Positions 7,687 through 55,950 of a DNA stretch of 64,000 nucleotides are shown here, in pieces. The position numbers and the translations under genes were made by a program. This stretch comes from Holophagales bacterium UBA5704. GTDB taxonomy: Bacteria > Acidobacteriota > Thermoanaerobaculia > Multivoradales > UBA5704. Under the pieces are notes generated by a model. That model had not been told where the DNA came from and ran no database searches. It saw only the letters and a program-made list of their open reading frames with translations. Location: contig DIHE01000157.1 in the NCBI GenBank assembly GCA_002420005.1, positions 18,296-82,295 on the forward strand, written 5' to 3'. Each line of letters opens with the position of its first letter. Position 1 is the stretch's first letter.

Positions 7687-7709
7687 CGGAAGGGGGCAGG
7701 AGCAGCAGC

Positions 7710-9090
7710 ATGGACGCGGCGATCACGGGCTTTGCTCTCTCTCCACAGCAGAAGCACCTCTGGCTTCTGGCGCAGGAAGGCGAGGCCGCCTTCCGCAGCC
7801 GGTGCACGGTCTTCCTGCGGGGCGACCTCGAGCCGGAAACTCTGAAGGCGGCCCTGGCGGACCTGGCGCAGCGCCACGAGGTGCTGCGCACGGTGTTCCA
7901 CCGCCCTCCCGGCCTGAGCCTGCCGCTGCAGGTGGTCGGGGAGCCCGGGTGGGACCTGCGGGAGGACAGCTTCGTCGATCTCCCCCCGGAGGAGCGGGCC
8001 GAGCGCCTCGGCCGGCTCCGCGCCCGCCTCGCCGCGGAGCCGATGGATCTGGCACGCGGGCCTTTGTGGCGCGCCGCTCTCGTGGCGCTGGCACCGCGAG
8101 AGCACGCCCTGCTTCTGGAAGTCCCGGCCCTGTGCGCCGACCGCCGCGGGCTCATCGCCCTGGTCCGGGAGATCGCCCGGTCCTGGACGGCGCTCGCCGC
8201 CGGCGGCGCGAGCGCCGGTGAGCCCGCCCAGTACATCGATCTGTCGGAGTGGCAGAACGAGCTGCTGAGCGCGGCGGACACCCGGCCGGGCCGGGAGCAC
8301 TGGCGCCGGCGCGGGACCACCGCACCGCCGCCTCCGGAGCTGCCGCTGCGCGCGGCGAGCCGTGCGGACGGTGCGAACGCTGCGCCGTTCCAGCCGCGCT
8401 CCGTGGCGGTGGCGCTCCCACCGGCTGCCTGGGGAGAGCTGCGCGCGCTCGCCGGGCGGGAGCAGACCGATCTGCGGAGCCTTCTGCTGGCCGCCTGGGC
8501 TCTCCTCCTGGCCCGGCTGACCGGCCGCGCGGAGCAGGAGGTCGGTCTGCTGGCCGATGGCCGCAACTTCAGCGAGCTGGTGGAGGCCGTGGGGCTGTTC
8601 GCGCGCTGCCTCCCGCTCTCCTTCACCGTGGCGCCGCACCGGCCGTTCACCTCGCTGCTGCGGGACGTCGCCGGTGAGGTGGGCGAGGCGGTGCAGCGAC
8701 AGCAGTTCTTCTCCTGGGAGGATTGGGAGGGCGGATCGCGCACCGCCACCGGGGTGCCCTGTCCGGAAGTCGCTTTCGAGCTCGCGGAGCTTCCGGAGCC
8801 GGTTGCGGCGCCGGGCGTGACGCTCTCCCTCGGCCACGCCGAGTCGACCAGCGAGCGCTTCGGCCTCAAGTTGCTGTGCTCGGCCGGGGACGAGGCCACC
8901 ACCGCGGAGATCGGCTTCGATGCCGCGCGCTTTCAGGAGGAAGACGTCCGCCGTCTGGCCGAGGGTCTCTCCGCCCTCCTGGCCGGCGTTCTCGCCTCCC
9001 CGGAGGGCGCCGTTGGAGACTTCGAGATCCTGGGTCCCGGGGAGAGAGCCCGCCGCCTGGTGGAGCTCAATCGGCCGGAGCCTCCGCTGC
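7710..9090 (+). other. Condensation-like domain lacking the catalytic HHxxxDG motif (second copy)
   Basis: N-terminal ~460 aa with LSPQQKHLWLL, RHEVLRTVF, LLLEVPALCADRRGLIALVREI and YIDLSEWQ. It has the same architecture as 2037-3360. Domain ends are approximate. Confidence 0.5.
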
Positions 9091-12000
9091 CGGCCGCTCC
9101 GGATCTCTGCGGCCTCTTCGATCGGCAGGCGGAGGCGCGCCCTGAGGCTCTCGCCGTGGTCGCGGGCGCGCAGAGCCTGACCTGGCGCGAGCTGGCGGAC
9201 CAGGCCAACCGCCTGGCCCATCATCTGCGGCGCCTCGGCGTCGGCCCCGAGGTCTGCGTCGCTCTCTGCCTCGACCGCTCGGTCGAGATGATCGTCTCCC
9301 TGCTGGCGGTGCTCAAGGCCGGCGGCGCCTACGTGCCGCTCGATCCGGGTCTGCCCCAGGAGCGGCTGGAGCTGATGCTCGCCGATGCCGGAGCCCGGGT
9401 GCTGGTGGTGCACGGGCCGACCTCTCTCCTGCTCCCGGCGGTGCCGGCGATCCGCCTCGACCTCGGTGCGGCCGGGGCGGCGCTCGCCGCGGAGAGCCCC
9501 GTGGCCCCGCCACCCGCCGCGGATGCGGACAACCTGGCCTATGTGATCTACACCTCCGGCTCGACCGGCCGGCCGAAGGGCGTCGCGATCTCGCGGGGCC
9601 AATTGGCGAGCTACACCCAGGCGGTGGCGCACCGGCTCGACCTGCCCGCGGGCGCCGGGTACGCGCTGATCTCGACCTTCGCTGCGGACCTCGGCAACAC
9701 CGTTCTCTTTCCCGCGCTCGCCGGCGGCGGCTGCCTGCACGTCCTGACGCAGGAGCATGCCTCCGACACGGCGGCGCTGGCGGACTACGCCGGACGCCAC
9801 GCGATCGACTGCCTGAAGATCGTCCCCTCGCACCTGCGCGCCCTCCTCGACGGCCCGCGGCCCGAGCGCGTGCTGCCGCGCAGGTGCCTGGTGCTCGGTG
9901 GAGAGGCGACCGACTGGGCCTTCCTGGCCCGCGTCCAGGAGCTGGCGCCCGGGTGCCGGGTGCTGAACCACTACGGCCCGACCGAAACCACGGTGGGCGC
10001 GCTGACCTGTGCCGTGCCGCACGGCTGGCGCGATCCCGACGCCGCGACCCTGCCGCTCGGGCGGCCCCTCCCCAACAGCCGGGTGTATGTCGTGGACGCC
10101 CGGTTGCAGGCGGTACCGGGTTGGGTGCCGGGTGAGGTGCTCATCGGCGGCGAGGGCGTGGCGCGCGGCTATGTGGGCCACCCCGCCCTGACCGCGGAGC
10201 GGTTCGTGCCCGATCCCTTCGCCGCGAGCCCCGGCCGGCGGGTCTACCGAAGCGGCGATCTGGCGCGCCATCTGCCGAGCGGCCTCCTCGAGTTCCTCGG
10301 CCGCAGCGACGACCAGGTGAAGATCCGCGGCTTCCGGGTCGAGCCCGGCGAGGTCGCGGCCCTGCTGCGCGGCCACCCGGCGGTGCGGGAAGCCGTGGTG
10401 CTGGCGCGCGAGGACGGGGGAGAGGGCAGGCGTCTGGTCGCCTATGTGGTGCCGGCCCGCGGCGGGCAGATCGCGCCGGACGAGCTGCGCTCCTGGCTGC
10501 GGCAGCGGCTTCCGGAGCACATGGTCCCCGCGGCTCTCGTCGTGCTCAAGGCCCTCCCGTTGACCTCCAACGGCAAGCTGGACCGCCGCGCCCTGCCGGC
10601 GCCGGAGCCGCCTCCCACCTCTCCGGCCGCGGGAGGCGCGCCACCGGACCCGGCCGAGGAGATCCTGCTCGGGATCTGGAGCGATCTGCTCGGCACGGCG
10701 CGGCGGATCGGCCGCCGCGACAGCTTCTTCGAGCTCGGCGGGCATTCGTTGCTGGCGATGCAGCTCATCTCGCGGGTGCGCGACGCCTTCCATGTGGAGA
10801 TCCCCCTCCCGGTGCTGTTCTCCACACCGACGGTGGCCGGCCTTGCGGAACGCATCGCGGCGGCCGGCCGGCCGGGCCGGGCGGTGGCGCCGCCGATCGA
10901 GCGTGTGCCGCGCGGGGGCGATCTGCCGCTTTCGTTCGCGCAGCAGCGCCTGTGGTTCCTCGACCGTCTCGAGCCGGGGAGCCCGTTCTACAACATCACC
11001 CGCGCCCTGCGGCTGCACGGCCACCTGGACGTCCGCTCGCTCGGCCGTGCCCTGGGCGAGATCGTCCGGCGGCATGAAGCACTGCGCACCACGTTCCCGT
11101 CGTCCGGCGGGTTCCCGGCCCAGGTGATCGCCGCCGCCGGAGACGCCTCCCTCTCCCTCGTCGACCTCGGCGGTCTCGGTACGGCCGGGCGCGAGGCGGT
11201 CGCGCTGGACCTGGCGACCCTCTGGGCACGGTCTCCCTTCGATCTGGCGCGCGGTCCTCTGCTGCGCCTCGGCCTGCTGCGGCTCGGCGAGCAGGAGCAC
11301 CTGCTGCTCGCGGCCGTCCACCACAGTGTCGCCGACGGCTGGTCCATGGGCGTGCTGGTGCGCGAGATCGGGGCGCTCTATGCGGCGTTCGTCCAGGGGG
11401 AGCCGTCCCCGCTGCCCGAGCTGCCCGTGCAGTACGCCGACTTCGCCGCCTGGCAGCGCAGTTGGCTGCAAGGCGAGGTCCTGGAGGAACAGATCGCCTT
11501 TTGGCGAGGCCGCCTCGCCGGAGCCCCCCGCGTGCTGGAGCTGCCGGCGGATCGGCCGCGCCCCCCGGTGCAGACCTTCCGGGGTGCCGTGCAGCCCCTG
11601 GTCCTGCCGCCCGCTCTTGCGCAGGCGGCTCGCGGCCTCGGCCGCCGGGAGAGCGCGACCCTCTTCATGACCCTGCTCGCCGCCTGGGCGGTTCTGCTCG
11701 GCCGCCACGCCGGGCAGGAGGACCTGCTGGTGGGGACGCCGATCGCCGGCCGCAACCGGCGCGAGATCGAGGACCTGGTCGGGTTCTTCGTCAACACCCT
11801 CGTCCTGCGCATCGAGCTGAGCGCAGGGGACAGTGGGACGGCGCCGGCGTTCCTGGAGGTCCTGGGGAGGGTGCGCGCCGGAGCCCTCACGGCTTTTGCC
11901 CACCAGGATCTCCCCTTCGAGCGCCTCGTCGAGGAGCTCGCCCCGGAGCGGGACCTCTCGCGCTCGCCGCTGTTCCAGGTCCTGTTCTCGCTGCAGAATG

Positions 12001-15000
12001 CGCCCGCCGGGGAGCTGCGGCTCCCCGGTCTCACCCTGGCCCCGGTGGAGACCGGGGCCGCGGTGGCGAAGTTCGATCTCTCGCTGTATCTCGTGGAGAC
12101 CGGCGCGGAGATCACGGGCGGGCTGGAGCACAATAGGGATCTGTTCGACGCGGGCACGGTGGAGCGGCTGGGAGCCCGCTTTGCAGCGCTCCTCGCAGCA
12201 GCCGTGGCGGACCCCGGTTGCCCGGTCGGGGACCTGCCGCTCCTGTCGCCGGCGGAGGTGGAGCAGCTCGTGACCGGCTGGAACGACACGGCCGAGCCGT
12301 TCCCGGCCGACCTCTGCGTCCATGAGCGGATCGCGGCGCAGGCGGCCCGGACACCGGAGGCCGTCGCCCTGTCCTTCGGCGGCGAGCCTCTCTTCTACCA
12401 GGAGCTCGTGGAGCGCGCCGGGCGGCTCGCCCGCCGGCTGGTCCGTCTGGGCGTCGGGCCGGACGTGCCGGTCGGCCTCTGTGCCGACCGCTCGCCCGCC
12501 CTGCTGGTGGGAGTGCTCGGGATTCTCCAGGCCGGCGGCGCTTACGTGCCGCTCGATCCGACCCATCCGCGGGAGCGTCTGGGGGCCATCCTGGCCGACT
12601 CCGGCCTCCGCGTCCTGGTCACCGAGAACGCTCTGCTCGGGACCTTGCCACACCACGGGGTGCCTCTCGTTCTCCTCGACGGCGAGACGGCCGGGGACGG
12701 GCGCGTGCCGTTGCCGCGGGTGCACCCCGAAAACCTGGCGTACGTCCTCTTCACCTCGGGCTCGACCGGCCGGTCCAAGGGGGTCGCGGTGAGCCACCGC
12801 GGCGTGATGAACTTTCTGACCACCTTGGCGGCACGGGCGGGGTTTTCCGCCGGCGACGTGGTGGTGGCCCTCACCACGCTCTCGTTCGACATCGCGGTCA
12901 CCGAGCTGCTCCTGCCGCTGACGATCGGAGCGCGGATCGAGCTGGTGCGCCGCGAGACGGCCGGCGACGCGCGGCTGCTGGCCGCGGCTCTGGAGTCGGC
13001 GGGCGCCACGGTGTTGCAGGCGACGCCGGCCACCTGGACCCTGCTGGTCGATGGGGGCTGGCAGGGCCGTCCCGGGCTCAAGGCGCTGTGCGGCGGTGAG
13101 GCCCTGCCGCGGGCTCTCGCCGATCGGCTGCTGCTCCGGGCCGCGGAGCTGTGGAACCTCTACGGCCCGACCGAGACCACGGTCTGGTCGACGCTTCACC
13201 GGATCACCGCAGACGAGCGCCGGGTGCCGATCGGACATCCCCTGGGCAACACCACGGTCCACCTCCTGGGGCGCTGGGGTGAGCTGGTGCCGGTCGGCGT
13301 GGTGGGCGAGCTGTGGATCGGCGGCGCCGGCCTGGCGCGCGGCTACCACGGCCGGCCCGACCTGACGGCCGAGCGGTTCCTCCCCGATCCCTTCGCAGCG
13401 CCCGGTGCGCGGCTCTACCGCACGGGCGACCTCGCCCGCCGCCTGCCCGACGGAGCGCTCGACTACCTGGGCCGCGCCGATTTCCAGGTGAAGGTGCGCG
13501 GTCACCGCATCGAGCTGGGGGAGATCGAGGCCGCGCTGCGCCGGCATCCGGATGTCCGCGACGCGGTGGCCGTGGTCCGCCAGGACGCACCCGACGAGAA
13601 GCGGCTGGCCGCCTACGTGGTGCCGGCGCAGGGAAAGGGGATCGGAGCCGCGGCACTGGCCGACTTCCTGCGTGGGATCCTGCCCGCCTCCATGATCCCT
13701 GCGGCCTTCTCCTTCCTGCCGGCGCTCCCCTTGACGCCCTCCGGCAAGGTCGACCGCCGCGCTCTGCCGGCGCCGGATCGCCGGGCCGCCGCTGCGGGCG
13801 CCGTGGAGCCGCGCGATCCGCTGGAGGAGCTGCTGGCCGGGGTCTGGGCGGAGGTCCTGCGGCTCGACCGGGTCGGCGTCCACGACGATTTCTTCCTCCT
13901 CGGAGGCCACTCCCTGCTGGCCACCCAGGTGATCTCGCGCCTGCACCAGGCGCTCGGGATGGAAGTGCCGCTGCGGTGGCTGTTCGAAGCTCCCACCGTG
14001 GCCGGGTTGGCGCGGAAGATTCTCGCCGGGCGGGCCGAGGGCGCGGCGACGCCGGCGCCTCCGCTCGTGCCGGTGCCGCGCGGCGGAGACCTCCCCCTCT
14101 CCTTCGCCCAGCAGAGGCTCTGGCTCATCGACCGTCTCGATCCCGGCAGCCCGGCCTACAACATGCCGCTGGCCCTGCGCCTGACCGGCGAGGTCACGCC
14201 CGCCCGGCTGGGGTGCATCTTCGCGGCCATCGTCCGGCGGCACGAGGTGCTGCGCACCACGTTCGTGGTCCGTGCGGGGGCGCCGGTGCAGGTGATCGCG
14301 CCCGCGGAGGATCGGACACCGCCCGTACCGGTCGTCGATCTGTCGTACCTGCCGGACGCGGCGGGCACGGCGGCGGCGCTCGCCCGCGACGAGGCACGCC
14401 GCCCCTTCGATCTGCGGCACGGCCCGCTGCTGCGCCTCGGCCTGCTCCGGCTGGGCACGGACGACCACGTCCTGCTTCTGACCCTGCATCACGTCGTCAC
14501 CGACGGCTGGTCTCAGGGAGTCCTGCTGCGCGAGATCGCCGAGCTCCACACCGCCTTCACCGAGGGGCGGCCTCCCGCCCTGCCGGAGCTCCCGGTGCAG
14601 TACGCCGATTTCGCCGTCTGGCAGAGGAGCTGGTTGCAGGGCGCCGTGCTGGCGGAACAGCTCGGCCACTGGCGGCGGCGCCTCGCCGGGGCACCGCGGC
14701 AGCTGGAGCTGCCCACGGATCGCCCGCGCCCGCCGTTGAAGACCCGCCGCGGTGCGAAGCGCCCGGTCGCCCTCCCGCCGGACCTGGCGGCGGGGATCCG
14801 GGAGCTGGGGCGGCGGGAGGGGGTCACCCCCTTCATGGTCCTCCTCGCCGCCTGGGCGCTCCTTCTCGGCCGTCACGCAGGCCAGGAGGACGTGGTGGTG
14901 GGCACGCCCATCGCCGGCCGCAACCGCCGCGAGCTCGAGGACCTCATCGGGTTCTTCGTCAACACCCTCGCCCTGCGCATCCGGCTCGACGGCTCCGGCT

Positions 15001-18000
15001 CCCCGCCCGCCTTCCGGGAGCTGCTCGGCCGCGTGCGCGAGAGCGCTCTGGATGCGTTCGCGCACCAGGACGTACCGTTCGAGCGCCTCGTCGAAGAGCT
15101 GGCTCCCGAGCGGGACCTCGCGCCCTCCCCGCTGTTCCAGGTCCTCTTCGTGCTGCAGAACCTGCCGGTCGCCGCACCGGCGGTGCCGGGGCTCTCTCTG
15201 GTGCCCCTCCCCATCGACAACGGAACGGCGAAGCTCGACCTGACGCTCTCCCTGAGCGAGGGGGCCGCCGGCTTTGCCGGCTCCCTGGAGCACGACCTCG
15301 ACCTGTTCGACGACGCGACGGTGGAGCGCCTGCCGGCCCGTTTCGCGGTGCTCCTCACGGGAGCCGTGGCGGCGCCCGGCCGGGCGCTGCCGGACCTGCC
15401 GCTGCTCCTCCCGGCGGAGCTGGAGCAGGTGGTGCACACCTGGAACGCCACGACCCGCGAGTACCCGCGGGACTCCTCCCTGCCCGAGCTGTTCGCCCGG
15501 GTGGCGCAGGAGCTGCCGGACGGCCCGGCGGTGATCGGCTCCGGAGAGGTCTGGAGCTACCGCCGGCTCGCCGCGGCATCCGACCGCCTCGCGCGGCGGC
15601 TGCGCGCCCTCGGGGTCGGGCCGGAAACCCCGGTCGGCCTCGCCATCGAGCGCTCGCCCGCGCTGGTCCTGGGCACCCTGGCCATCGTCAAGGCCGGCGG
15701 CGCCTACGTGCCGCTCGATGCCGGCCATCCCGACGAGCGCCTCGCCTTCCTCCTGGCGGACACCGGAGCGCGCATCGTGCTGGTGCACGGCGCCACGCGG
15801 GACCGGATGGCGGCGCTCGGCGCCTGCTGCGTGGACCTTGAAGACGCGCCGGACGAGAGCGCTGCGCCCCCGCCACCGCCACACCTTCCGGCCGACAGTC
15901 TCGCCTACGTCCTCTACACCTCGGGCTCGACCGGCCGGCCGAAGGGGGTGGCCGTGCCGCACCGGGCCGTCGTGCGGCTGGTGCGCCAGACCGACCACCT
16001 GCGCCTGGGACCCGGCGACCGCGTGGCCCACCTGTCGAATACGAGCTTCGACGCAGCCACCTACGAGATCTGGGGCGCCCTGCTCAACGGCGCCGCCGTG
16101 GCCGTGATCCCGCGCGACACCGTGCTTTCGTCCTCCGCCGGGCTCGCGGCGGCCCTGGCGGAGCAGCGGGTCACCTCGATGTTCCTCACCTCGGCGCTGT
16201 TCACCCGGATGGCGGCCGAGGTGCCGGACGCCTTCCACCACCTGCACGAGGTGCTCGTCGGCGGCGAGGCGGTGAGCCCCGCCGCCGCCCGCAGAGTGCT
16301 GGCCGGCCGGCCGCCGCGCCGCCTGCTCAACGCGTACGGCCCGACCGAGAGCACGACCTTCGCCGCCTGGTATCCGATCCGGGAGGTCCCGGCGGACGCG
16401 GTCTCGGTCCCCATCGGGTTTCCGCTGGCCAACACGACGCTCTACGTGCTGGACCGCCGGTGGTCTCCGGTCCCGCCCGGCTCGGTGGGAGAGCTCGCCA
16501 TCGGCGGCGACGGCCTCGCCCGCGGCTATCTGGGCCGTCCGGAGCTCTCCGCCGAACGCTTCGTTCCCCATCCCTGGGGCGACGGTGAGCGCTTGTACCG
16601 CACCGGGGACCTGGTGCGGCGGCGGCCTGATGGGGCGCTGGAGATCCTCGGCCGGCTCGACCACCAGATCAAGATCCGCGGCTTCCGGATCGAGCCGGGT
16701 GAGATCGAGACGGTCCTGGCGAGCCATCCGGCGATCCGCGAGTGTGTGGTCGTGGCGTGCGAGGGCCCGCCGGGATCGCATTTCCTGGCCGCCTATGTCG
16801 TGGGCTCCGCGGAGCCTCCCGAGGCGACGGGTCTCCGCACCTTCCTGAGCGAACGGCTGCCCGGCTACATGGTGCCGTCCGCGTTCGTGGTCCTGGAGGC
16901 CCTGCCGTTCTCGCCGAACGGCAAGGTGGACCGGAGGGCCCTGCCGGACCCGCAAGGCCACGGCTCACCGGAGCACGCCTTCGTGGCACCCTCCGATCCG
17001 GTGGAGGTGAAGCTGGCCGCGATCTGGAGCGAGGTGCTGCGGCGCGACCGGATCGGGGCCGAGGACGACTTCTTCGCGCTGGGCGGACACTCCCTGCTGG
17101 CCACCCAGGTGGTCACCCGGGTGGAGGAGGTGCTGGGCGTGGAGATCCCGCTGCGCGATGTCTTCGAAGCACCGACCCTGCGCCGCCTCGCCCGCCGTCT
17201 GCGCGAACAACACGGTGGAGAGACCGCCACACCGCCCCTCCTGCCCGCCACCGACCCGCCGCGGAGCGCTCCCTTGTCCTTCGCCCAGCAGCGGCTCTGG
17301 TTTCTGAACCAGCTCGAGCCGGGAAACCCGGCCTACAATGTCCCGCTGGCGGTTCGCCTCACCGGCGGGCTGTCGGTGGAAGCGCTGGAGAGGACCTTTG
17401 CCGAGGTCGTGCGCCGGCACGAGGCGCTGCGGACCTCGTTCCCGGTCGAAGCCGGACAGCCGGTGCAGAGGATCGCGGCGAGCGGGGACCTGCGGCTGGA
17501 GCTGCAGCCCGTCGATCTGTCGGACGCCCCGGAGGAGGCGCGCGAAGAATGGGTCCACAAACTGGTCCAGGAGGAGGCCGGGCATCCGTTCGATCTGGAG
17601 AACGGTGCGCTGCTGCGCTGCGGCCTGCTGCGCCTGGGTGAACGGGAGCACCTTCTGTTGGTGACCTTCCACCACATCGTCTCCGACGGCTGGTCCATGG
17701 GCGTCCTGCTGCGCGAGCTCGGCGCCTTGTATCCGGCCTTCCTCCGCGGCGAGCCTTCACCTCTTCCCGAGTTGAGGTCGCAATACGCCGATTTCGCGCG
17801 TTGGCAGCGGAGCCGGCTGCAGGGGGAGGTCCTGGAGCAGCTCCTCTCCCATTGGAAAGACGCGCTCGCCGGAGCTCCGACCCTGCTGGAGCTGCCCACG
17901 GATCGGCCACGGCCGGCGGTTCAGTCCTACCGCGGTGCCTTGGCCGGCCTGACCCTGGCACCCGGCTTGCCGGCGGCCCTCCGCGAGCTCTGCCGGAAGG

Positions 18001-20441
18001 CGGGGGTGACTCCTTTCATGCTTCTGCTGGCGTCCTGGGCGGTCGTGCTGGGGCGCTACGCCGGGCAGGAGGACGTGCTGCTGGGCTCGACCATCGCGGG
18101 GCGCAATCGCCGGGAGATCGAAGATCTGATCGGCTTCTTCGTGAACACCCTGGTGTTGCGCACGAACCTCGCGGGCTCCCAATCCTTCGCTCATCTGCTG
18201 GGGTGCGTGCGCGAGACGGCCCTGGACGCCTTTGCGCATCAGGACCTCCCTTTCGAGCTTCTGGTCGAGGAGCTCACGGTCGAACGCAATCTCGCACACT
18301 CCCCGCTGATCCAGGCGATGCTGACGTTCCAGAATACACCGGCCGCCGAGCTGCGGCTGGCGGACCTGACGTTCTCCCCGGTGGAGCGGCAGGCCACCAC
18401 GGCGAAATTCGACCTCGGTCTCGGGTTCCGCCAGACGGCCGAGGGCTTTGCCGGCTCTCTGGAGTATGCGACCGACCTCTTCGACCCCTCGACGGCCGAG
18501 CGCCTTCTCGGCCACCTGACCCAGGTTTTGACGCACGCCGCCGCGTCTCCCGCATGCCCTCTCTCGGAGCTCCGCTTCCTGAGCGCAGCGGAAGAGCGGT
18601 TGCTCCAGACCGACCTCAACCAGGCCCGGCGGAGCTGGGCGCTTCCCGGCACCGTCCAGGACCTGTTCACGCGGCAGGCGCGCCGGACACCCGACAAGAC
18701 CGGCGCCGTGGGTCCCCGGGGGGCGATGACCTACCGCGAGATCGCAGAGCGTTCCTCCGCTCTGGCGCAGCAGATCGGGTGGGCCGGGGCCGGTGCGCCG
18801 CTCGACCGGCGGATCGGCCTGCTGGCGGATCCCGATCCCGAGGTGTTGGTCGGGATGCTCGGTATTCTGAAGGCGGGCGGCGGATTCGTCCCGATGGACA
18901 CCCGCCATCCGGACGAGCGCCTGGCCTGGACTCTGCAAGACTGCGGGTGTGAGGTGCTGGTCACCCAGCGCCGGCACGTGGCGCGGGTGGCGGCGCTCGC
19001 CCCCGGTTTGCGCCGCGTGGTCTGCCTGGAAGACGCACTCCCCTCCGCCACGGAGACCGCTCTCCGGAGCGAGCCGCTCTCCCTCGCGTATGCCGTGTAT
19101 ACCTCGGGCTCGGCCGGCCGGCCCAAGGGAGTGCAGATTGCGCACGAGAGCCTCGTGCCGATGCTCCACTGGGGCTGCAGCCATCTGGGCCTCGGCGAGC
19201 ACACCCGGGTCCTCCAGAGCCTCGCCTTCTGCTTCGACTTCGGCATCTTCGAGATCCTCACGACCGTGGTCGCGGGAGGCACACTTCTCTTCCCCGGCGA
19301 GGCCGCGGGTGATCCGGAGGCCTTCGCGCAGGAGATCGCCCGGCACGGCGTCAACACCCTGCACACGACGCCGGCTTTTGCGCGTGAGCTCGCGAGGGCT
19401 GCCGAGGCGGGCCGGGCTCTGGAGAGTCTCGAGATCCTCCATCTCGGGGGTGAGGCGCTGCCGCGGGAGACCGCGGCGCGCCTTCGCGAAGCCGCGCCGC
19501 GCGCGGCTCTCTACAACGGCTATGGCCCGACCGAGGCGACGATCAACAGCTCGATCTACCGGATCGACGGCGGCGACGGCGAAGAGACGGCCTGGCCGGT
19601 GGTCCCGATCGGCCGGCGGTCGGCGGACAATGCGCTGTACGTCCTCGACCCCACGGGCCGGCTTGCGCCGCTCGGCGCGCGCGGGGAGCTCTGCGTCGGG
19701 GGGATCGGAGTGGCACGGGGCTACCTCGGACGACCCGGCTTGACCGCCGAGCGTTTCGTCCCGGACCCGTTCGGCACCGCACCCGGCGGGCGGCTCTACC
19801 GTACCGGCGACCTGGTTCGGTATCTGCCCGAGGGCGGCCGGCCCGGCAGGGATCTCGAATTCCTCGGCCGGATCGATCAGCAGGTCAAGCTGCGTGGCTT
19901 CCGGATCGAGCTGGGGGAGATCGAGTCCGCGCTGCAGAGCCATCCCGCGGTGAGCGCCTGCGTGGCTCTGCTGCGGACGGATGCCCCCGGAGATCCACGC
20001 CTCGTCGCCTACGTCGTCCTCGATCCGCCGGACGATCCGGAAGATCCGCGGCCGGCTCTCGCGGCCTGGCTGCGCGGAAAGCTGCCCGAGTACATGGTGC
20101 CCGCGCTCGTTCTCCTCGATGCGTTGCCGCTCACCACCAACGGCAAGGTGGACCGCCGGGCGCTGCCGGCACCGGAGCGCCGCGCGGAGGAGTCGGCCTA
20201 CGTGGCACCCGGCGATCCGCTCGAAGAAAAGCTGGCCGGGATCTATCAAGAGGTGCTCCAGCTCAACCGCGTGGGCATCCATGACAACTTCTTCTCCCTG
20301 GGCGGACATTCGTTGCTCGCCACCCAGGTGGTCACGCGAGTCCGGGAGACCTTGGGTCTCCAACTCCACCTGCGGCGTATCTTCGAGGCGCCGACCGTCC
20401 ATCAGCTCGCCAGGGGCTTGCGCGGCGGGCATCCCGCCTAA
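7710..20441 (+). CDS. Non-ribosomal peptide synthetase, four modules: C-like - A - T - C - A - T - C - A - T - C - A - T (no release domain)
   Basis: Track ORF 7305..20441. I moved the start to ATG 7710, the first ATG after the dioxygenase stop at 7684-7686. Motifs in order: EVPALCAD 8118-8141 instead of HHxxxDG; A1 (SGSTGRPKG, NHYGPTETT); T1 Ser 10747-10749; HHSVADG 11319-11339; A2 (SGSTGRSKG, NLYGPTETTVWS); T2 Ser 13911-13913; HHVVTDG 14487-14507; A3 (SGSTGRPKG, NAYGPTESTTFA); T3 Ser 17091-17093; HHIVSDG 17670-17690; A4 (SGSAGRPKG, NGYGPTEATINSS); T4 Ser 20310-20312. Only ~43 aa follow the last carrier Ser. Confidence 0.9.
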   Translation: MDAAITGFALSPQQKHLWLLAQEGEAAFRSRCTVFLRGDLEPETLKAALADLAQRHEVLRTVFHRPPGLSLPLQVVGEPGWDLREDSFVDLPPEERAERLGRLRARLAAEPMDLARGPLWRAALVALAPREHALLLEVPALCADRRGLIALVREIARSWTALAAGGASAGEPAQYIDLSEWQNELLSAADTRPGREHWRRRGTTAPPPPELPLRAASRADGANAAPFQPRSVAVALPPAAWGELRALAGREQTDLRSLLLAAWALLLARLTGRAEQEVGLLADGRNFSELVEAVGLFARCLPLSFTVAPHRPFTSLLRDVAGEVGEAVQRQQFFSWEDWEGGSRTATGVPCPEVAFELAELPEPVAAPGVTLSLGHAESTSERFGLKLLCSAGDEATTAEIGFDAARFQEEDVRRLAEGLSALLAGVLASPEGAVGDFEILGPGERARRLVELNRPEPPLPAAPDLCGLFDRQAEARPEALAVVAGAQSLTWRELADQANRLAHHLRRLGVGPEVCVALCLDRSVEMIVSLLAVLKAGGAYVPLDPGLPQERLELMLADAGARVLVVHGPTSLLLPAVPAIRLDLGAAGAALAAESPVAPPPAADADNLAYVIYTSGSTGRPKGVAISRGQLASYTQAVAHRLDLPAGAGYALISTFAADLGNTVLFPALAGGGCLHVLTQEHASDTAALADYAGRHAIDCLKIVPSHLRALLDGPRPERVLPRRCLVLGGEATDWAFLARVQELAPGCRVLNHYGPTETTVGALTCAVPHGWRDPDAATLPLGRPLPNSRVYVVDARLQAVPGWVPGEVLIGGEGVARGYVGHPALTAERFVPDPFAASPGRRVYRSGDLARHLPSGLLEFLGRSDDQVKIRGFRVEPGEVAALLRGHPAVREAVVLAREDGGEGRRLVAYVVPARGGQIAPDELRSWLRQRLPEHMVPAALVVLKALPLTSNGKLDRRALPAPEPPPTSPAAGGAPPDPAEEILLGIWSDLLGTARRIGRRDSFFELGGHSLLAMQLISRVRDAFHVEIPLPVLFSTPTVAGLAERIAAAGRPGRAVAPPIERVPRGGDLPLSFAQQRLWFLDRLEPGSPFYNITRALRLHGHLDVRSLGRALGEIVRRHEALRTTFPSSGGFPAQVIAAAGDASLSLVDLGGLGTAGREAVALDLATLWARSPFDLARGPLLRLGLLRLGEQEHLLLAAVHHSVADGWSMGVLVREIGALYAAFVQGEPSPLPELPVQYADFAAWQRSWLQGEVLEEQIAFWRGRLAGAPRVLELPADRPRPPVQTFRGAVQPLVLPPALAQAARGLGRRESATLFMTLLAAWAVLLGRHAGQEDLLVGTPIAGRNRREIEDLVGFFVNTLVLRIELSAGDSGTAPAFLEVLGRVRAGALTAFAHQDLPFERLVEELAPERDLSRSPLFQVLFSLQNAPAGELRLPGLTLAPVETGAAVAKFDLSLYLVETGAEITGGLEHNRDLFDAGTVERLGARFAALLAAAVADPGCPVGDLPLLSPAEVEQLVTGWNDTAEPFPADLCVHERIAAQAARTPEAVALSFGGEPLFYQELVERAGRLARRLVRLGVGPDVPVGLCADRSPALLVGVLGILQAGGAYVPLDPTHPRERLGAILADSGLRVLVTENALLGTLPHHGVPLVLLDGETAGDGRVPLPRVHPENLAYVLFTSGSTGRSKGVAVSHRGVMNFLTTLAARAGFSAGDVVVALTTLSFDIAVTELLLPLTIGARIELVRRETAGDARLLAAALESAGATVLQATPATWTLLVDGGWQGRPGLKALCGGEALPRALADRLLLRAAELWNLYGPTETTVWSTLHRITADERRVPIGHPLGNTTVHLLGRWGELVPVGVVGELWIGGAGLARGYHGRPDLTAERFLPDPFAAPGARLYRTGDLARRLPDGALDYLGRADFQVKVRGHRIELGEIEAALRRHPDVRDAVAVVRQDAPDEKRLAAYVVPAQGKGIGAAALADFLRGILPASMIPAAFSFLPALPLTPSGKVDRRALPAPDRRAAAAGAVEPRDPLEELLAGVWAEVLRLDRVGVHDDFFLLGGHSLLATQVISRLHQALGMEVPLRWLFEAPTVAGLARKILAGRAEGAATPAPPLVPVPRGGDLPLSFAQQRLWLIDRLDPGSPAYNMPLALRLTGEVTPARLGCIFAAIVRRHEVLRTTFVVRAGAPVQVIAPAEDRTPPVPVVDLSYLPDAAGTAAALARDEARRPFDLRHGPLLRLGLLRLGTDDHVLLLTLHHVVTDGWSQGVLLREIAELHTAFTEGRPPALPELPVQYADFAVWQRSWLQGAVLAEQLGHWRRRLAGAPRQLELPTDRPRPPLKTRRGAKRPVALPPDLAAGIRELGRREGVTPFMVLLAAWALLLGRHAGQEDVVVGTPIAGRNRRELEDLIGFFVNTLALRIRLDGSGSPPAFRELLGRVRESALDAFAHQDVPFERLVEELAPERDLAPSPLFQVLFVLQNLPVAAPAVPGLSLVPLPIDNGTAKLDLTLSLSEGAAGFAGSLEHDLDLFDDATVERLPARFAVLLTGAVAAPGRALPDLPLLLPAELEQVVHTWNATTREYPRDSSLPELFARVAQELPDGPAVIGSGEVWSYRRLAAASDRLARRLRALGVGPETPVGLAIERSPALVLGTLAIVKAGGAYVPLDAGHPDERLAFLLADTGARIVLVHGATRDRMAALGACCVDLEDAPDESAAPPPPPHLPADSLAYVLYTSGSTGRPKGVAVPHRAVVRLVRQTDHLRLGPGDRVAHLSNTSFDAATYEIWGALLNGAAVAVIPRDTVLSSSAGLAAALAEQRVTSMFLTSALFTRMAAEVPDAFHHLHEVLVGGEAVSPAAARRVLAGRPPRRLLNAYGPTESTTFAAWYPIREVPADAVSVPIGFPLANTTLYVLDRRWSPVPPGSVGELAIGGDGLARGYLGRPELSAERFVPHPWGDGERLYRTGDLVRRRPDGALEILGRLDHQIKIRGFRIEPGEIETVLASHPAIRECVVVACEGPPGSHFLAAYVVGSAEPPEATGLRTFLSERLPGYMVPSAFVVLEALPFSPNGKVDRRALPDPQGHGSPEHAFVAPSDPVEVKLAAIWSEVLRRDRIGAEDDFFALGGHSLLATQVVTRVEEVLGVEIPLRDVFEAPTLRRLARRLREQHGGETATPPLLPATDPPRSAPLSFAQQRLWFLNQLEPGNPAYNVPLAVRLTGGLSVEALERTFAEVVRRHEALRTSFPVEAGQPVQRIAASGDLRLELQPVDLSDAPEEAREEWVHKLVQEEAGHPFDLENGALLRCGLLRLGEREHLLLVTFHHIVSDGWSMGVLLRELGALYPAFLRGEPSPLPELRSQYADFARWQRSRLQGEVLEQLLSHWKDALAGAPTLLELPTDRPRPAVQSYRGALAGLTLAPGLPAALRELCRKAGVTPFMLLLASWAVVLGRYAGQEDVLLGSTIAGRNRREIEDLIGFFVNTLVLRTNLAGSQSFAHLLGCVRETALDAFAHQDLPFELLVEELTVERNLAHSPLIQAMLTFQNTPAAELRLADLTFSPVERQATTAKFDLGLGFRQTAEGFAGSLEYATDLFDPSTAERLLGHLTQVLTHAAASPACPLSELRFLSAAEERLLQTDLNQARRSWALPGTVQDLFTRQARRTPDKTGAVGPRGAMTYREIAERSSALAQQIGWAGAGAPLDRRIGLLADPDPEVLVGMLGILKAGGGFVPMDTRHPDERLAWTLQDCGCEVLVTQRRHVARVAALAPGLRRVVCLEDALPSATETALRSEPLSLAYAVYTSGSAGRPKGVQIAHESLVPMLHWGCSHLGLGEHTRVLQSLAFCFDFGIFEILTTVVAGGTLLFPGEAAGDPEAFAQEIARHGVNTLHTTPAFARELARAAEAGRALESLEILHLGGEALPRETAARLREAAPRAALYNGYGPTEATINSSIYRIDGGDGEETAWPVVPIGRRSADNALYVLDPTGRLAPLGARGELCVGGIGVARGYLGRPGLTAERFVPDPFGTAPGGRLYRTGDLVRYLPEGGRPGRDLEFLGRIDQQVKLRGFRIELGEIESALQSHPAVSACVALLRTDAPGDPRLVAYVVLDPPDDPEDPRPALAAWLRGKLPEYMVPALVLLDALPLTTNGKVDRRALPAPERRAEESAYVAPGDPLEEKLAGIYQEVLQLNRVGIHDNFFSLGGHSLLATQVVTRVRETLGLQLHLRRIFEAPTVHQLARGLRGGHPA

Positions 20442-20478
20442 GGTTTATCGGTTCAATTTGAAGAAAGGGGGCTCAACC

Positions 20479-22398
20479 ATGTACCGTGTCGCACTCGTCA
20501 ACATGCCGTTCGCCAACGCCGACATGCCATCGCTCGCCCTGACCCAGCTCAAAGCCGTCTTGCAGAGCGAGCTGGGCGATCAGGTGGAGTGTCAGGTGCT
20601 CTATCCCAACCTCGATTTCGTCGGCCATCTCGGTCCCCGCCTCTACGAGATCATCTCCAACACCACCCTGGCCAACACCGCGGGGCTGGGGGACTGGTTC
20701 TTCAGCCAGGAGGCGTTTCCCGAGAAACCCGACGATTCGGACGCCTACCTGGTCCGCCACTTCTCCGAGCACCGGTCGCAGCTCGATGCCTTCCGTGGCG
20801 AGCTGAAAGAAAAACGCCGGCAGGCGGGAGCCCTCCTCGACGATCTCATCGAGCGCTACCGGCTGGACAGCTACTCGCTGATCGGCTTCACCACCATGTT
20901 CTCGCAGAACATGGCGTGCATCGCCATGGCCAGGAAGCTCAAGGCCCTGCGCCCCGAGATCACCATCCTGATGGGCGGGGCCAACTGCGAGTCCCCGATG
21001 GGAGACGTGCTCGCCAGGAACGTGGCCGAGATCGATTACGTTTTTTCCGGGCCCAGCCTGGTCGCCTTTCCACGGCTCGTCCGCCATCTCCTGCAGGGAG
21101 AAATCGAGGAGTGCGACAAGATCAAGGGTGTCCTCACCAGCCGGAAGCTGGCGGCACAGGAGGCCGGCCACGACCGCGAGATCGGCGAAGAGCTGGACAT
21201 CGCGTTCGACGTACCGCTCGATTATGACGACTACTTCGCGGCGTTCGATGCGAAGGTGCCGAAGGATGCGGGCTTCGAGCCGAAGGTGATGTTCGAAACC
21301 TCGCGCGGCTGCTGGTGGGGCGAGCGGGCCCACTGCACCTTCTGCGGCCTGAACGGCGTCACCATGTCTTACCGCGCCTTGCCGGCGGACAAGGCCCTGA
21401 ACCTCCTGCACGGGCTGTTCGAGCGGTACGGCGCCCGGGCCCCGGAGTTCAAGTCGGTCGACAACATCCTGCCGCGGGAATACCTCACCGACGTCCTGCC
21501 GTATCTGGAGACACCGGAAGAAAACTTCCTGTTCTATGAGATCAAGGCCGATCTCAAGGAACGCGAGGTGGCGGTGCTGGCGCAGGCCCGGGTGACGCGG
21601 ATCCAGCCCGGCATCGAGTCGCTGGCGACCAGCTCCTTGAAACTGATGCGCAAGGGGACGACGTCGTTCCAGAACCTCAAGTTCCTCAAGCACTGCCAGC
21701 GGTACGGCATCTATTCGCTGTGGAACCTCCTGGTCGGCTTCCCCAACGAGCCCGAATCGGTCTACGCGAAGTATTACGAGGATCTGCCGCTGCTCATCCA
21801 TCTCGAGCCGCCGAGCGGCGCCCATCCGATCCGCTTCGACCGCTTCAGCCCCTATTTCGTGCGGGCCCAGGAGTACGGCCTCAAGCTGAAGCCGTTCAAG
21901 TGGTACGAGATGCTCTATCCCTTCCCGGCGGAAGAGCTCCACGACCTCGCCTACTACTTCGCGGACGAGGATTACAAGGCGACGCATGTCGCGAGCACCG
22001 CGCGCTGGCTCGGCAAGCTGCGCGAGCGCATCGCCCACTGGCAGGTTCGCTACTACCAGCGCGACCGGCGGCTCAAGCCGGAGCTGACCACCAAGGAGCG
22101 CCGCGGAGCCATGGTGGTCTACGACTCCCGCTCCGGCTCTGCCGTCGAGCACTCCCTCTCTCCGACCGTCTGGAAGATCCTCGATCTCCTGGAGGAGCCG
22201 CTCAAGATTCCGCGGCTGGTCGAGAAGCTCGCCGGCATCCCGGAGCAGGAGGTGACCGCGGGGGTCGCCTTCCTCAAGCAGCGCGGCCTCCTCTTCGAGG
22301 AGGACGGCGCCTACATGAGCCTGGTGCTGCGGCCCGAGAGACCGACCTTGCTCCGCGCACAACCGGCCGCAGCCGCGACCGAGGCGATCGCCTCGTGA
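20479..22398 (+). CDS. B12-binding-domain radical SAM enzyme, RiPP-maturase-like family
   Basis: ATG at 20479 lies 37 nt after the NRPS stop and is preceded by GAAAGGGGG. The N terminus MYRVALVNMPFANADMPSLALTQLKAVL is typical of the B12-binding rSAM family that I recall as TIGR03975-like. Cys cluster SRGCWWGERAHCTFCGLNG (Cys codons 21310, 21334, 21343). C-terminal stretch LSPTVWKILDLLEEPLKIPRLVEKLAGIPEQEVTAGVAFLKQRGLLFEEDG looks like a PqqD/RRE winged helix. Confidence 0.85.
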   Translation: MYRVALVNMPFANADMPSLALTQLKAVLQSELGDQVECQVLYPNLDFVGHLGPRLYEIISNTTLANTAGLGDWFFSQEAFPEKPDDSDAYLVRHFSEHRSQLDAFRGELKEKRRQAGALLDDLIERYRLDSYSLIGFTTMFSQNMACIAMARKLKALRPEITILMGGANCESPMGDVLARNVAEIDYVFSGPSLVAFPRLVRHLLQGEIEECDKIKGVLTSRKLAAQEAGHDREIGEELDIAFDVPLDYDDYFAAFDAKVPKDAGFEPKVMFETSRGCWWGERAHCTFCGLNGVTMSYRALPADKALNLLHGLFERYGARAPEFKSVDNILPREYLTDVLPYLETPEENFLFYEIKADLKEREVAVLAQARVTRIQPGIESLATSSLKLMRKGTTSFQNLKFLKHCQRYGIYSLWNLLVGFPNEPESVYAKYYEDLPLLIHLEPPSGAHPIRFDRFSPYFVRAQEYGLKLKPFKWYEMLYPFPAEELHDLAYYFADEDYKATHVASTARWLGKLRERIAHWQVRYYQRDRRLKPELTTKERRGAMVVYDSRSGSAVEHSLSPTVWKILDLLEEPLKIPRLVEKLAGIPEQEVTAGVAFLKQRGLLFEEDGAYMSLVLRPERPTLLRAQPAAAATEAIAS

Positions 22399-22476
22399 GT
22401 CTTTGAAAGATCGGGGGCGGCGAAACCCACCGCCGCACCCGATCCCGAGCCGCTCTGTCGCTCGATTGCTCTCTCC

Positions 22477-22499
22477 GGGGACGTGCCCCCCACGTCCCC
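22477..22499. terminator. Perfect 9-bp-stem hairpin between convergent genes (possible bidirectional terminator)
   Basis: GGGGACGTG-ccccc-CACGTCCCC sits in the 214 nt gap between the rSAM stop (22398) and the convergent ORF stop (22613). There is no clear U tract. Confidence 0.35.
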
Positions 22500-22612
22500 G
22501 CCTCGTCTCCCCCCGGGAACCGTGTCAAACCCGGCCACAGGCCGATGCAATGAACAGCCTTCCCAGGCTGCTCACGAGCCGGCTGCCTCGTGGGAACCGA
22601 GGGAAGCGGTGC

Positions 22613-23047
22613 TCACCGGAGCCTGTACTCGCGCATCTCAGCGTAGAGCGGGGTCAACGTGTCGATTTCGCACGAACGGTCGGTGAACCTGTAGGTCGTC
22701 GCGAAGTCCTCATAGCTGCGGGCCCGCCAGAGCCTCCCGGCGGGATCGACCACCAGAGAGTGCCCGACGCCCCCGCGGAAGATCGCCGAGCCGTCGGTGC
22801 CGGTGTACCCCCGGCACGTCCAAGGCCGTTCCTCGGGATGCGCGGCCATGAAAGCCTCGATCTCGCCGACGAGCTGCGCGAAGAGCTGCGCCCGTTCCGC
22901 CGCAGGTGCACGGAGAGTGCGCTCGATGGCCCGGCTGAGCATGGGCTCTGCCGGTGAAGAGAGGACCCCTGATTGGAGCGGCTCGGCCATGACCCAACCA
23001 TCATGCTGGCAGCCGACCTGAAACCCCAGGGGCTCCAGGAACCGCAA
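22613..23047 (-). CDS. Hypothetical protein
   Basis: 144 aa ORF with a protein-like composition (..GSAIFRGGVGHSLVVDPAGRLWRARSYEDFATTY..) and G/C-rich third positions. I recognise no family. The start is uncertain; internal Met codons are possible. Confidence 0.5.
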   Translation of the reverse strand: MRFLEPLGFQVGCQHDGWVMAEPLQSGVLSSPAEPMLSRAIERTLRAPAAERAQLFAQLVGEIEAFMAAHPEERPWTCRGYTGTDGSAIFRGGVGHSLVVDPAGRLWRARSYEDFATTYRFTDRSCEIDTLTPLYAEMREYRLR

Positions 23048-26985: not shown

Positions 26986-27399
26986 ATGGCGCCCATGAGC
27001 GAACCTTCTTTCAGCCCACCCACGGGACCGATGCAGCCGGCGATCCGCGTCCTCATGATGCCCAAGGACACCAATGCCCTGGGCACCATCTTCGGCGGCA
27101 TCATCCTTTCCTATATCGACCAGGCAGGCGCCGTGGAGGCCCACCGGCACACTCCGGGCCGCCTGGTGACCGTGGCGCTGCGCGAGGTGGTGTTCCACGC
27201 TCCGGTCTTCGTCGGCGATCTGGTGAGCTTTTTCACCGAGACGCTGCGCCTCGGCCGCACCTCGGTGAGCGTCAAGGTGACCGTCGAAGCCGAGCGCGGC
27301 TACCAGGGAACCGGCCGGGTCAAAGTGACGGAGGCGGAGATCGTCTACGTCCACGTCGACACCAACAACCAGCCGGTGCCGATCGCAGGCGGCGGCTGA
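26986..27399 (+). CDS. Acyl-CoA thioesterase, hotdog fold (YciA-like)
   Basis: 137 aa with MPKDTNALGTIFGGIILSYIDQAG...VVFHAPVFVGDLV. The start could be a downstream Met. Confidence 0.8.
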   Translation: MAPMSEPSFSPPTGPMQPAIRVLMMPKDTNALGTIFGGIILSYIDQAGAVEAHRHTPGRLVTVALREVVFHAPVFVGDLVSFFTETLRLGRTSVSVKVTVEAERGYQGTGRVKVTEAEIVYVHVDTNNQPVPIAGGG

Positions 27400-55327: not shown

Positions 55328-55867
55328 ATGAGGCACGTCAGTTGGAAAGCCGCCTTGGCCTTCGCCCTCGCCATGGCCATCCTCCCGGCCGTCGCAGCGG
55401 CCCAATCGAGCTGTACCGGATGCACCATCACCGGCACCGCCGGAAACGACATCATCTATGGCACGGCCGGCGCCGACACCATCTGCGCCCTCGGCGGAGA
55501 CGATACGGTCTACGGCCTGGGCGGAGACGACCACCTCTGCGGCTACACCGGGAATGATCAGCTGTACGGCGGGTCCGAGGCCGACTTGTGCGAAGGCCAT
55601 GAGGGGGTCGACTATCTGGTCGGCGACACGGAGAATGACCAACTCATCGGTTGGCGGGACGGAGACACTCTTGACGGCTGGACCGGCAACGACGATCTCT
55701 TCGGCTCCCGCAACAACGATTTCCTCCTGGGCTACAGTGGCAACGACAACCTTTATGGAGAGAACGACAACGACACGCTCGACGGCGAGGCCGGCACCGA
55801 CTACCTGGACGGGGGAGCCGGGACGGACTCTTGTGTCAATGGCGAGACGTACGTGAGTTGCCCCTGA
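55328..55867 (+). CDS. Small secreted calcium-binding repeat protein (RTX/hemolysin-type GGxGxD-like repeats)
   Basis: Signal peptide MRHVSWKAALAFALAMAILPAVAAAQS. Then about 12 tandem 9-residue-type units (GTAGNDIIYGTAGADTICALGGDDTVYGLGGDDHLCGYTGNDQLYGG...). 8 Cys. Confidence 0.75.
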   Translation: MRHVSWKAALAFALAMAILPAVAAAQSSCTGCTITGTAGNDIIYGTAGADTICALGGDDTVYGLGGDDHLCGYTGNDQLYGGSEADLCEGHEGVDYLVGDTENDQLIGWRDGDTLDGWTGNDDLFGSRNNDFLLGYSGNDNLYGENDNDTLDGEAGTDYLDGGAGTDSCVNGETYVSCP

Positions 55868-55950
55868 CTCCGGGCTCTCCCCCGACACGCGAGGGCGCGA
55901 GGGGGAGGGTTCCCCTTTTTCAAAACCCTACGGAACGGGAGGATCGCGTC

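Follow-up and report, generated by a model that had tools for sequence, protein, structure and literature searches.

The first demonstration of radical C-methylation on a non-ribosomal peptide dates from late 2025 and concerns a single enzyme from a sponge symbiont (PMC12858407). This enzyme, DscE, serves discodermin biosynthesis in 'Candidatus Entotheonella monilis' (PMC12858407, Nat Chem Biol, November 2025). It is a 693-amino-acid (aa) cobalamin (B12)-dependent radical S-adenosylmethionine (SAM) methyltransferase, and its gene directly follows that of DscD, a non-ribosomal peptide synthetase (NRPS) ending in a thioesterase (TE). In vitro, DscE converts released discodermin D into discodermin B by methylating Val5, and then into a little discodermin A, the change being from Val to tert-Leu in the released discodermin (PMC12858407). 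The authors termed the pairing of an NRPS with a radical SAM (rSAM) enzyme 'an unusual enzyme combination' (PMC12858407). Here we describe such a pairing in a 64,000-nt stretch of Holophagales bacterium UBA5704 (Acidobacteriota, Thermoanaerobaculia; assembly GCA_002420005.1, contig DIHE01000157.1, positions 18,296 to 82,295), the whole of which we call the window, where the gene for a 639-aa rSAM protein lies just behind a giant NRPS gene. We consider it likely that this protein is a class B methyltransferase from an NRPS-associated clade of the family TIGR03975, co-transcribed with the NRPS and tailoring its peptide, and that it is not the catalyst of chain release.

As in the discodermin cluster, the gene for a B12-dependent rSAM enzyme directly follows the final NRPS gene of a large cluster, and Val-type modules occur in the NRPS operon. 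DscE acts on a leaderless non-ribosomal peptide, the same class of substrate that we propose for the rSAM protein of the window. The two systems differ in the length of the enzyme (693 versus 639 aa), in the end of the preceding NRPS (a TE in DscD, a carrier, or T, domain in the window) and in the host, a sponge symbiont in one case and a soil-type Thermoanaerobaculia metagenome-assembled genome in the other. The best BLAST match of DscE (52% identity) bears the TIGR03975 product name, and DAFWLGGTFK is the adenylation (A) domain code of the DscB modules whose Val DscE methylates (PMC12858407). Beyond the Entotheonella paper, we found no further report of NRPS-linked TIGR03975 enzymes in the literature.

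PoyB and PoyC, the C-methyltransferases of the proteusin polytheonamide, belong to the same NCBIfam family as the window's rSAM protein; they and their kin linked to ribosomally synthesised and post-translationally modified peptides (RiPPs) carry out radical C-methylation of unactivated side-chain carbons (PMC12858407). Such RiPP-linked members have their domain order in common with the rSAM protein, including a C-terminal winged helix and a D-S/T-R-x-G motif. The RiPP-linked members compared with it are about 33% identical and lie beside annotated precursors, whereas the window's own clade (43-86% identity) is linked to NRPSs and lacks precursor genes. Outside TIGR03975, CysS of cystobactamid biosynthesis is likewise a B12-rSAM methylase in an NRPS pathway, and it matches the rSAM protein in structure (E 3.5e-9, TM-score about 0.46) at about 13% sequence identity. 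The substrate of CysS is a building block with a pantetheinyl link, of which it methylates an aryl methoxy group; peptide side chains are not its target (compare the title of PDB entry 9n1c). TokK/ThnK, TsrM and OxsB have the same architecture of a B12 Rossmann domain and a radical SAM barrel; they are 13-15% identical to the rSAM protein, act on small molecules or Trp and have no C-terminal winged helix shown to align with that of the window. Their cluster motif is the canonical CxxxCxxC of rSAM enzymes, in place of which the 639-aa protein carries the variant Cx7Cx2C.

Family and fold place the 639-aa protein among class B radical SAM enzymes

An earlier note on this DNA, made from the letters alone, had described a 639-aa protein with a B12-type N-terminus and a C-x7-C-x2-C cluster, and had likened it to TIGR03975. 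Both points were borne out. The protein matches NCBIfam TIGR03975 at 563.9 bits (cut-off 281.85), with all of the model (1-606 of 606) aligned to aa 4-617, and the Pfam Radical_SAM core at 40.1 bits against a threshold of 29.5. By family and fold it is a class B (cobalamin-dependent) rSAM enzyme of TIGR03975, with the following parts:

20479-22398, plus strand: cobalamin-dependent (class B) radical SAM enzyme, 639 aa, TIGR03975 family (NCBIfam, AlphaFold model, Foldseek)
20479-21093, plus strand: N-terminal Rossmann-like domain of the cobalamin-binding type, about aa 1-205 (strand-helix alternation, structural matches to B12-rSAM enzymes)
21310-21345, plus strand: cluster-binding motif C278-x7-C286-x2-C289, GCWWGERAHCTFCGLNG
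22078-22323, plus strand: C-terminal winged-helix domain, aa 534-615, about 82 aa, predicted order b1-b2-b3-a1-a2-a3-b4-b5 (models, pLDDT 94)

Across 36 homologues, C278 and C289 never vary, and C286 is kept in at least 90%. An AlphaFold (AF2) model built from the alignment of 36 homologues reached a predicted local distance difference test (pLDDT) score of 88; pLDDT is low at aa 280-296, as expected of a loop modelled without its cluster. The best Foldseek matches in the PDB were OxsB, TokK, TsrM, CysS, MgmA and AprD4 (E 1e-12 to 1e-8), with OxsB at the top, and the alignments to OxsB, TokK, TsrM and CysS extend over 530-670 columns (E 1e-12 to 1e-9). A sequence search of solved structures returned OxsB alone, at E 0.04, and none that is close. 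In the N-terminal domain the Pfam B12-binding match is sub-threshold (24.0 versus 32.1 bits, aa 121-200), and its assignment as a Rossmann-like domain of the cobalamin-binding type is supported by the strand-helix alternation in the model and by the structural matches to B12-rSAM enzymes.

The C-terminal domain is predicted to be a winged helix of RRE-like topology

The earlier note saw in the last ~60 aa a likeness to PqqD and the RiPP recognition element (RRE). In the models, the strand and helix order is indeed RRE-like, and the domain is larger, about 82 aa. Its strands are at aa 536-541, 544-549 and 556-558 and its helices at aa 562-570, 577-583 and 589-601, followed by an extra hairpin at aa 605-614 (pLDDT 92-98). 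Three strands followed by three helices is the order of an RRE, to which the model adds the wing hairpin.

Similarity searches with this tail return a mixed company. Foldseek places MecI first (E 0.02) and generic winged-helix proteins lead the list; the lasso peptide RRE TfuB1 (6jx3_B) ranks seventh (E 0.044, TM-scores 0.50/0.54). A profile of the tail against PDB sequences finds TfuB1 (0.045), CteB (0.17) and LynD (0.44), all inside their RRE regions, with ArsR/MarR-type regulators scoring equally well or better. Pfam PqqD has no match in the 639-aa protein; among 27 clade members, it finds 3 (best E 0.026) and HTH_20 finds 7. As modelled, the domain is a winged helix of RRE-like topology, with weak similarity evidence that includes no statistically significant RRE match and does not single out RREs. 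The RiPP-linked members of the family also have the tail domain and its invariant D-S/T-R-x-G motif; the domain is therefore a family trait, not an adaptation to NRPSs.

The rSAM protein belongs to an NRPS-linked clade

To see the gene in its wider context, consider the closest relatives. Homologues at 86%, 78% and 72% identity directly follow a giant NRPS gene, with downstream genes that are unrelated to one another, and for a 66% homologue the distance to an NRPS is 2.6 kb. Between loci whose rSAM proteins are 72-86% identical, the NRPS modules on the flanks reach only about 50%. We also scanned one genome per species (GTDB representatives, to which the window's own genome does not belong), which gave 80 loci at 43-81% identity, mostly from Acidobacteriota, with others in Gemmatimonadota, Planctomycetota, Polyangium, Nitrospirales and Binatia. 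NRPS A or condensation (C) domains lie within 10 kb of the rSAM gene at 56 of these 80 loci, and at 38 of the 44 that have more than 5 kb on both flanks. The protein of the window belongs to this NRPS-linked clade. Thus the proposal that a RiPP-family B12-rSAM enzyme has been recruited to an NRPS pathway gains support from an adjacency that is kept while the downstream genes differ, and the search for syntenic NRPS-rSAM pairs that the earlier note had suggested turned them up both among the close relatives and across the scan. Its view that the pairing is unusual found no support: the pairing is the rule for the clade, and DscE is a biochemical precedent.

The layouts vary. At three of the four loci at 72-86% identity, those of the 86%, 81% and 72% homologues, the NRPS ends in T-TE (the end seen in L011, L013 and L015); at the locus of the 78% homologue and in the window it ends on a T domain. 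With a bar for a protein boundary, we counted TE|rSAM at five loci, T|rSAM at six and T|rSAM|C at six, with three near variants of the last; T|rSAM without a downstream NRPS is found in the window, L012, L027, L043 and L062. A few NRPS-less loci carry MacB/FtsX exporters or a set of LanB-N, PALP and ornithine cyclodeaminase (OCD) genes. Farther out, plasmid-borne members of the family at about 33% identity adjoin annotated RiPP precursors, namely CefA, with a TIGR04463 maturase, and a pheganomycin-family precursor. Given the NRPS linkage in the window's clade and the precursors beside the ~33% members, the family is split into RiPP-linked members and a large NRPS-linked clade.

Near the window's rSAM gene we found no precursor-like open reading frame (ORF), as the earlier note had also concluded. 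The only small neighbour is a 109-aa ORF (22613-22942, minus strand), which sits between the rSAM gene and an arginine deiminase operon. We rejected it as a precursor or partner: it has no Pfam or NCBIfam match, occurs only in assemblies of the same species and stands beside no other rSAM gene.

Three of the related loci deserve mention in their own right. L033 (4685-12958) is an NRPS-free cluster in which the gene of a 46%-identical rSAM protein is flanked by those of a pyridoxal phosphate-dependent (PALP) enzyme and of an ornithine cyclodeaminase. A Lant_dehydr_N gene (small, LanB-like) lies further upstream, and the cluster is reminiscent of pearlin-type carrier-peptide pathways (compare PMC9303977). 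At L054 the rSAM gene stands mid-NRPS, with five identical Val codes (DAFWLGGTFK) around it, the code also of the DscB modules mentioned above. L066 (Polyangium sp. 15x6, NZ_JASBQE010000059.1, named as an isolate) has its rSAM gene between NRPS genes and could be experimentally tractable.

Gene order as the probable reason for the bare carrier domain

The first 22.4 kb of the window, on the plus strand, is a single operon that runs from the tail of an NRPS through the rSAM gene. Ahead of and behind that gene it comprises:

74-2029, plus strand: C-terminal part (..A-T-C) of a 5036-aa NRPS (Pfam AMP-binding_C, PP-binding and Condensation)
2037-6659, plus strand: NRPS of 1540 aa, with a C-like domain without the catalytic His (PALCAD), an A domain (Asp code DLTKIGHVGK), T and C (Pfam, A-domain code, C-domain alignment)
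6637-7686, plus strand: stand-alone TauD/TfdA-family Fe(II)/2-oxoglutarate dioxygenase, 349 aa (Pfam TauD, 168 bits; called gene)
7710-20441, plus strand: NRPS of 4243 aa, C-like(PALCAD)-A(Asp)-T-C-A-T-C-A-T-C-A-T (Pfam: four C, four A and four T domains; motifs; A-domain codes)
20214-20432, plus strand: last carrier (T) domain, with the signature of a carrier that precedes a C domain, not a TE
20442-20478, plus strand: 37-nt spacer with the Shine-Dalgarno-like GAAAGGGGG about 8 nt before the ATG
22476-22500, plus strand: G+C-rich hairpin with a 10-bp stem, 78 nt past the rSAM stop codon (fold energy -24.7 kcal/mol for 61 nt, z = -2.8)

The 5036-aa NRPS starts about 13 kb upstream of the window; its size and domain string come from contig DAIMFI010000015.1. 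The A-domain codes of the 4243-aa NRPS are DLTKVGHVGK, DITA-GLVWK, DAYFLGATFK and DFFHHGGINK. For this protein the longest ORF begins at 7305 and the called start is at 7710 (MDAAITGF...); the first 135 codons of the longest ORF (7305-7709) overlap the TauD gene and do not look protein-coding.

At the junction with the rSAM gene, the carrier Ser codon (TCG, motif LGGHSL) is at 20310-20312, in frame with the 4243-aa NRPS, and the TAA stop is at 20439-20441, 42 aa past that Ser, close to the ~43 aa given in the earlier note. The same note placed the 639-aa gene 37 nt downstream on the same strand with its own Shine-Dalgarno sequence, in agreement with our reading of the spacer. A scan of the spacer (20442-20478) for promoter-like or terminator-like sites gave no match. 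The rSAM protein sequence is identical on eight contigs from several assemblies, and the succession of T domain, stop codon and rSAM gene is the same in six of the six contigs listed; the junction is therefore no assembly artefact.

Chain release had been tied to the rSAM enzyme on the grounds that no TE, reductase or terminal C/Cy motif was present in the window. Using Pfam and tblastn, we found no PF00975-type TE and no NRPS reductase in the window or in the 8 kb upstream, 72 kb in all, so that this part of the claim stands. The remainder does not: the two upstream NRPS proteins (74-2029 and 2037-6659) terminate in C domains, internal to the assembly line, and the window does encode a thioesterase of another kind. 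This is a YciA-like hotdog-fold acyl-CoA thioesterase (27031-27399, plus strand), which lies 4.6 kb downstream, next to an extracytoplasmic function (ECF) sigma/RskA pair; it is the window's only thioesterase of any kind and belongs to a separate transcription unit. We rejected the terminal C-type domains of the upstream proteins as epimerisation (E) domains, since they have no E-domain motifs. An MbtH-like gene, one of which adjoins dscE, is absent from the window and present in some related loci.

What does the last carrier hand its chain to? We built two T-domain hidden Markov models (HMMs) from related loci, one from 19 carriers that precede a TE and one from 55 that precede a C domain, leaving the window and L012 out of the training. 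In cross-validation, the difference between the TE-HMM and C-HMM scores averaged +15 for T-to-TE domains (79% positive) and -17 for T-to-C domains (5% positive). The last T domain of the window scored -15.2, its five internal T domains -12.7 to -22.4, and the T-to-TE domains of the closest relatives +21.6 to +25.5. This signature suggests that the 4243-aa protein passes its chain on to another protein that begins with a C domain. Hence the description of an assembly line ending on a bare carrier holds as gene order, while the carrier itself scores as internal; among the NRPS genes of the operon, that of the 4243-aa protein comes last, but the line probably does not finish with this protein. 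We expect a further protein, with a C domain first and a TE, to be encoded elsewhere, possibly in the 4.6 kb that precede the 5036-aa NRPS gene on DAIMFI010000015.1. In several other genomes, a C-starting NRPS protein is encoded directly after the rSAM gene. The alternative raised in the earlier note, a release enzyme outside the window, fits the T-to-C signature and the lack of a TE in the reachable 72 kb, although the TE itself was not found. The missing TE thus looks like a matter of gene order and not like a new release mechanism.

The hairpin that had been taken to close the operon is real by its z score; it has no U tract and no match in a terminator scan, and the missing U tract means that it is not a canonical intrinsic terminator. 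It is a possible operon end.

Proposed function and rival explanations

We infer the methylation chemistry, the target residues and the timing of the reaction, as we do the location of the TE. By analogy with DscE, the enzyme most likely methylates unactivated carbons of the peptide. In the A domains, Stachelhaus-type codes point to three Val/Ile-like modules (DAFFMGVTFK, DAWFLGGTFK and DAYFLGATFK), two for Asp, one Gly-like module and one unassigned module. Methylation most likely falls on the residues that the three Val/Ile-type modules load, for example by conversion of Val to tert-Leu. Following established class B chemistry, the [4Fe-4S] cluster bound by Cx7Cx2C would reductively cleave SAM, and the resulting 5'-deoxyadenosyl radical would take a hydrogen from an aliphatic side chain, at an unactivated sp3 carbon. 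A methyl group would then move from methylcobalamin to the substrate radical, and a second SAM would re-methylate the cobalamin. The reaction would most likely take place on the released peptide, as with DscE.

Several points weigh against this reading. The tie of the rSAM protein to DscE is a family assignment at the level of annotation. Class B rSAM folds also support chemistry other than methylation, as in OxsB (ring contraction), the top structural match, and AprD4, which is also listed. From locus to locus, the module that immediately precedes the rSAM gene differs in its A-domain code, and the position of the gene is therefore uninformative about the target residue. As for the fate of the chain, the T-domain classifier was built from 19 T-to-TE and 55 T-to-C examples and misclassified 21% of true T-to-TE domains in cross-validation, and the TE predicted elsewhere was not found on a coverage of DAIMFI010000015.1 that starts after position 9770.

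The same enzyme with the same chemistry might act at another time, while the peptide is being assembled, and methylate an aminoacyl or peptidyl intermediate still tethered to its carrier, or else a free amino-acid precursor. The rSAM gene often lies precisely at a T|C protein junction, CysS has been crystallised with a pantetheinylated substrate (9n1c), and a carrier domain could find its docking site on the conserved C-terminal winged helix. We nevertheless hold this timing to be unlikely, if still worth taking seriously, in view of the free, released peptide that DscE accepts, the lack of conservation in the A-domain code of the module before the rSAM gene, and the fact that T|C is the usual split point of NRPS genes anyway. 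Improbable, in our judgement, is a non-methylating radical reaction on the non-ribosomal peptide, be it a C-C or C-S crosslink, a rearrangement or an epimerisation: the NCBI family is named for characterised C-methyltransferases, DscE is a methyltransferase, and the structural matches are mostly methylases (TokK, TsrM, CysS and MgmA), even though the best of them is a non-methylating B12-rSAM enzyme, AprD4 also matches and the Cx7Cx2C motif is non-canonical.

A part for the rSAM enzyme in peptide release from a TE-less final carrier, as the earlier note had envisaged, would accord with the recurrence of T|rSAM without a downstream NRPS in the window and at four other loci and with the absence of a TE from the 72 kb examined. 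Yet the closest relatives (86%, 81% and 72%) follow NRPSs with a standard T-TE end, and therefore the rSAM enzyme is no substitute for a TE; the last T domain also resembles an internal carrier with a C domain as its recipient. We know of no B12-rSAM enzyme that cleaves thioesters, and we regard a role in release as very improbable. A variant restricted to the TE-less layouts (the window, L012, L027, L043 and L062) has the rSAM enzyme act on the tethered peptide, with the RRE-like winged helix repurposed to dock the carrier or nascent peptide and so to couple modification to hand-over or release; we rate this as decidedly improbable. If it were true, a RiPP recognition module, the winged helix, would have found a second use within an assembly line. 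Finally, the rSAM gene could be part of a separate RiPP pathway whose precursor gene is elsewhere, and its place beside the NRPS a matter of chance, an idea to which the family name, the family-wide RRE-like domain and the distant members that adjoin RiPP precursors lend some colour. It is hardly credible when 38 of 44 well-flanked relatives, in several phyla, are NRPS-linked, when the gene follows the NRPS on the same strand after 37 nt with no promoter match, and when no precursor-like ORF was found and the only small neighbour is species-specific. We therefore retain tailoring methylation of the NRPS product as the preferred reading.

Other features of the NRPSs and neighbouring genes

In the N-terminal C-like domains of the 1540-aa and 4243-aa NRPSs (2037-3390 and 7710-9060), PALCAD replaces HHxxxDG. 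These two domains are 37% identical to each other and about 30% identical to the other seven C domains. Each comes before an A domain with an Asp code and after a protein whose last domain is an ordinary C domain, and the TauD gene lies between the two. The TauD-family dioxygenase (6637-7686) has no NCBIfam equivalog match; it is a probable Asp beta-hydroxylase partner of the two His-less C-like domains. The arrangement resembles the 'interface domain plus Asp beta-hydroxylase' layout of beta-hydroxyaspartate siderophores (Reitz et al. 2019, cited in PMC12230676). By this analogy, two beta-hydroxy-Asp residues are predicted in the NRPS product.

Further upstream in the same operon, in the 5036-aa NRPS (L008, 1-1900), an A domain whose code is that for Cys (DLYDLSLVWK) is interrupted ahead of its A3 motif by a methyltransferase domain. 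This interrupted A domain, which we take to be of the TioN/KtzH type, suggests an S-methyl-Cys or similar residue.

The genes 3' of the rSAM gene are convergent with it and comprise the orphan 109-aa ORF and genes for ornithine carbamoyltransferase and arginine deiminase. Beyond the arginine deiminase genes lie an ECF sigma/anti-sigma pair and then a long glycan-biosynthesis region, a cell-envelope cluster (27443-53447) that is unrelated to the rSAM finding. It holds genes for GT4 and GT2 glycosyltransferases, GDSL hydrolases, a carbamoyltransferase, two FkbM methyltransferases and a DegT aminotransferase, as well as a formyltransferase, an epimerase, an acyltransferase_3 protein and a GT4 WecA-like protein. 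Near the far end of the window are a 1380-aa protein with about ten CarboxypepD_reg repeats (55831-59973) and, adjoining it, a 1326-aa protein with PDZ, TPR and CHAT domains (59994-63974, minus strand).

Significance

An NRPS paired with an rSAM enzyme of this kind was already described in 2025; what is added here is its widespread occurrence and the fact that the family name is misleading for the clade. Genome-mining tools that label such loci as RiPP clusters are wrong, and one survey threw out antiSMASH TIGR03975 calls as false-positive RiPP clusters. Structure predictions for the products of such NRPSs should admit extra C-methyl groups, for example tert-Leu. The clade is also a potential source of leader-independent peptide C-methylases for engineering, while the finding opens no new mechanism of chain release. 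Our observations indicate that NRPS operons in Acidobacteriota, Gemmatimonadota, Planctomycetota, Myxococcota and Nitrospirales have incorporated a whole clade of a family that bears the annotation 'RiPP maturation'.

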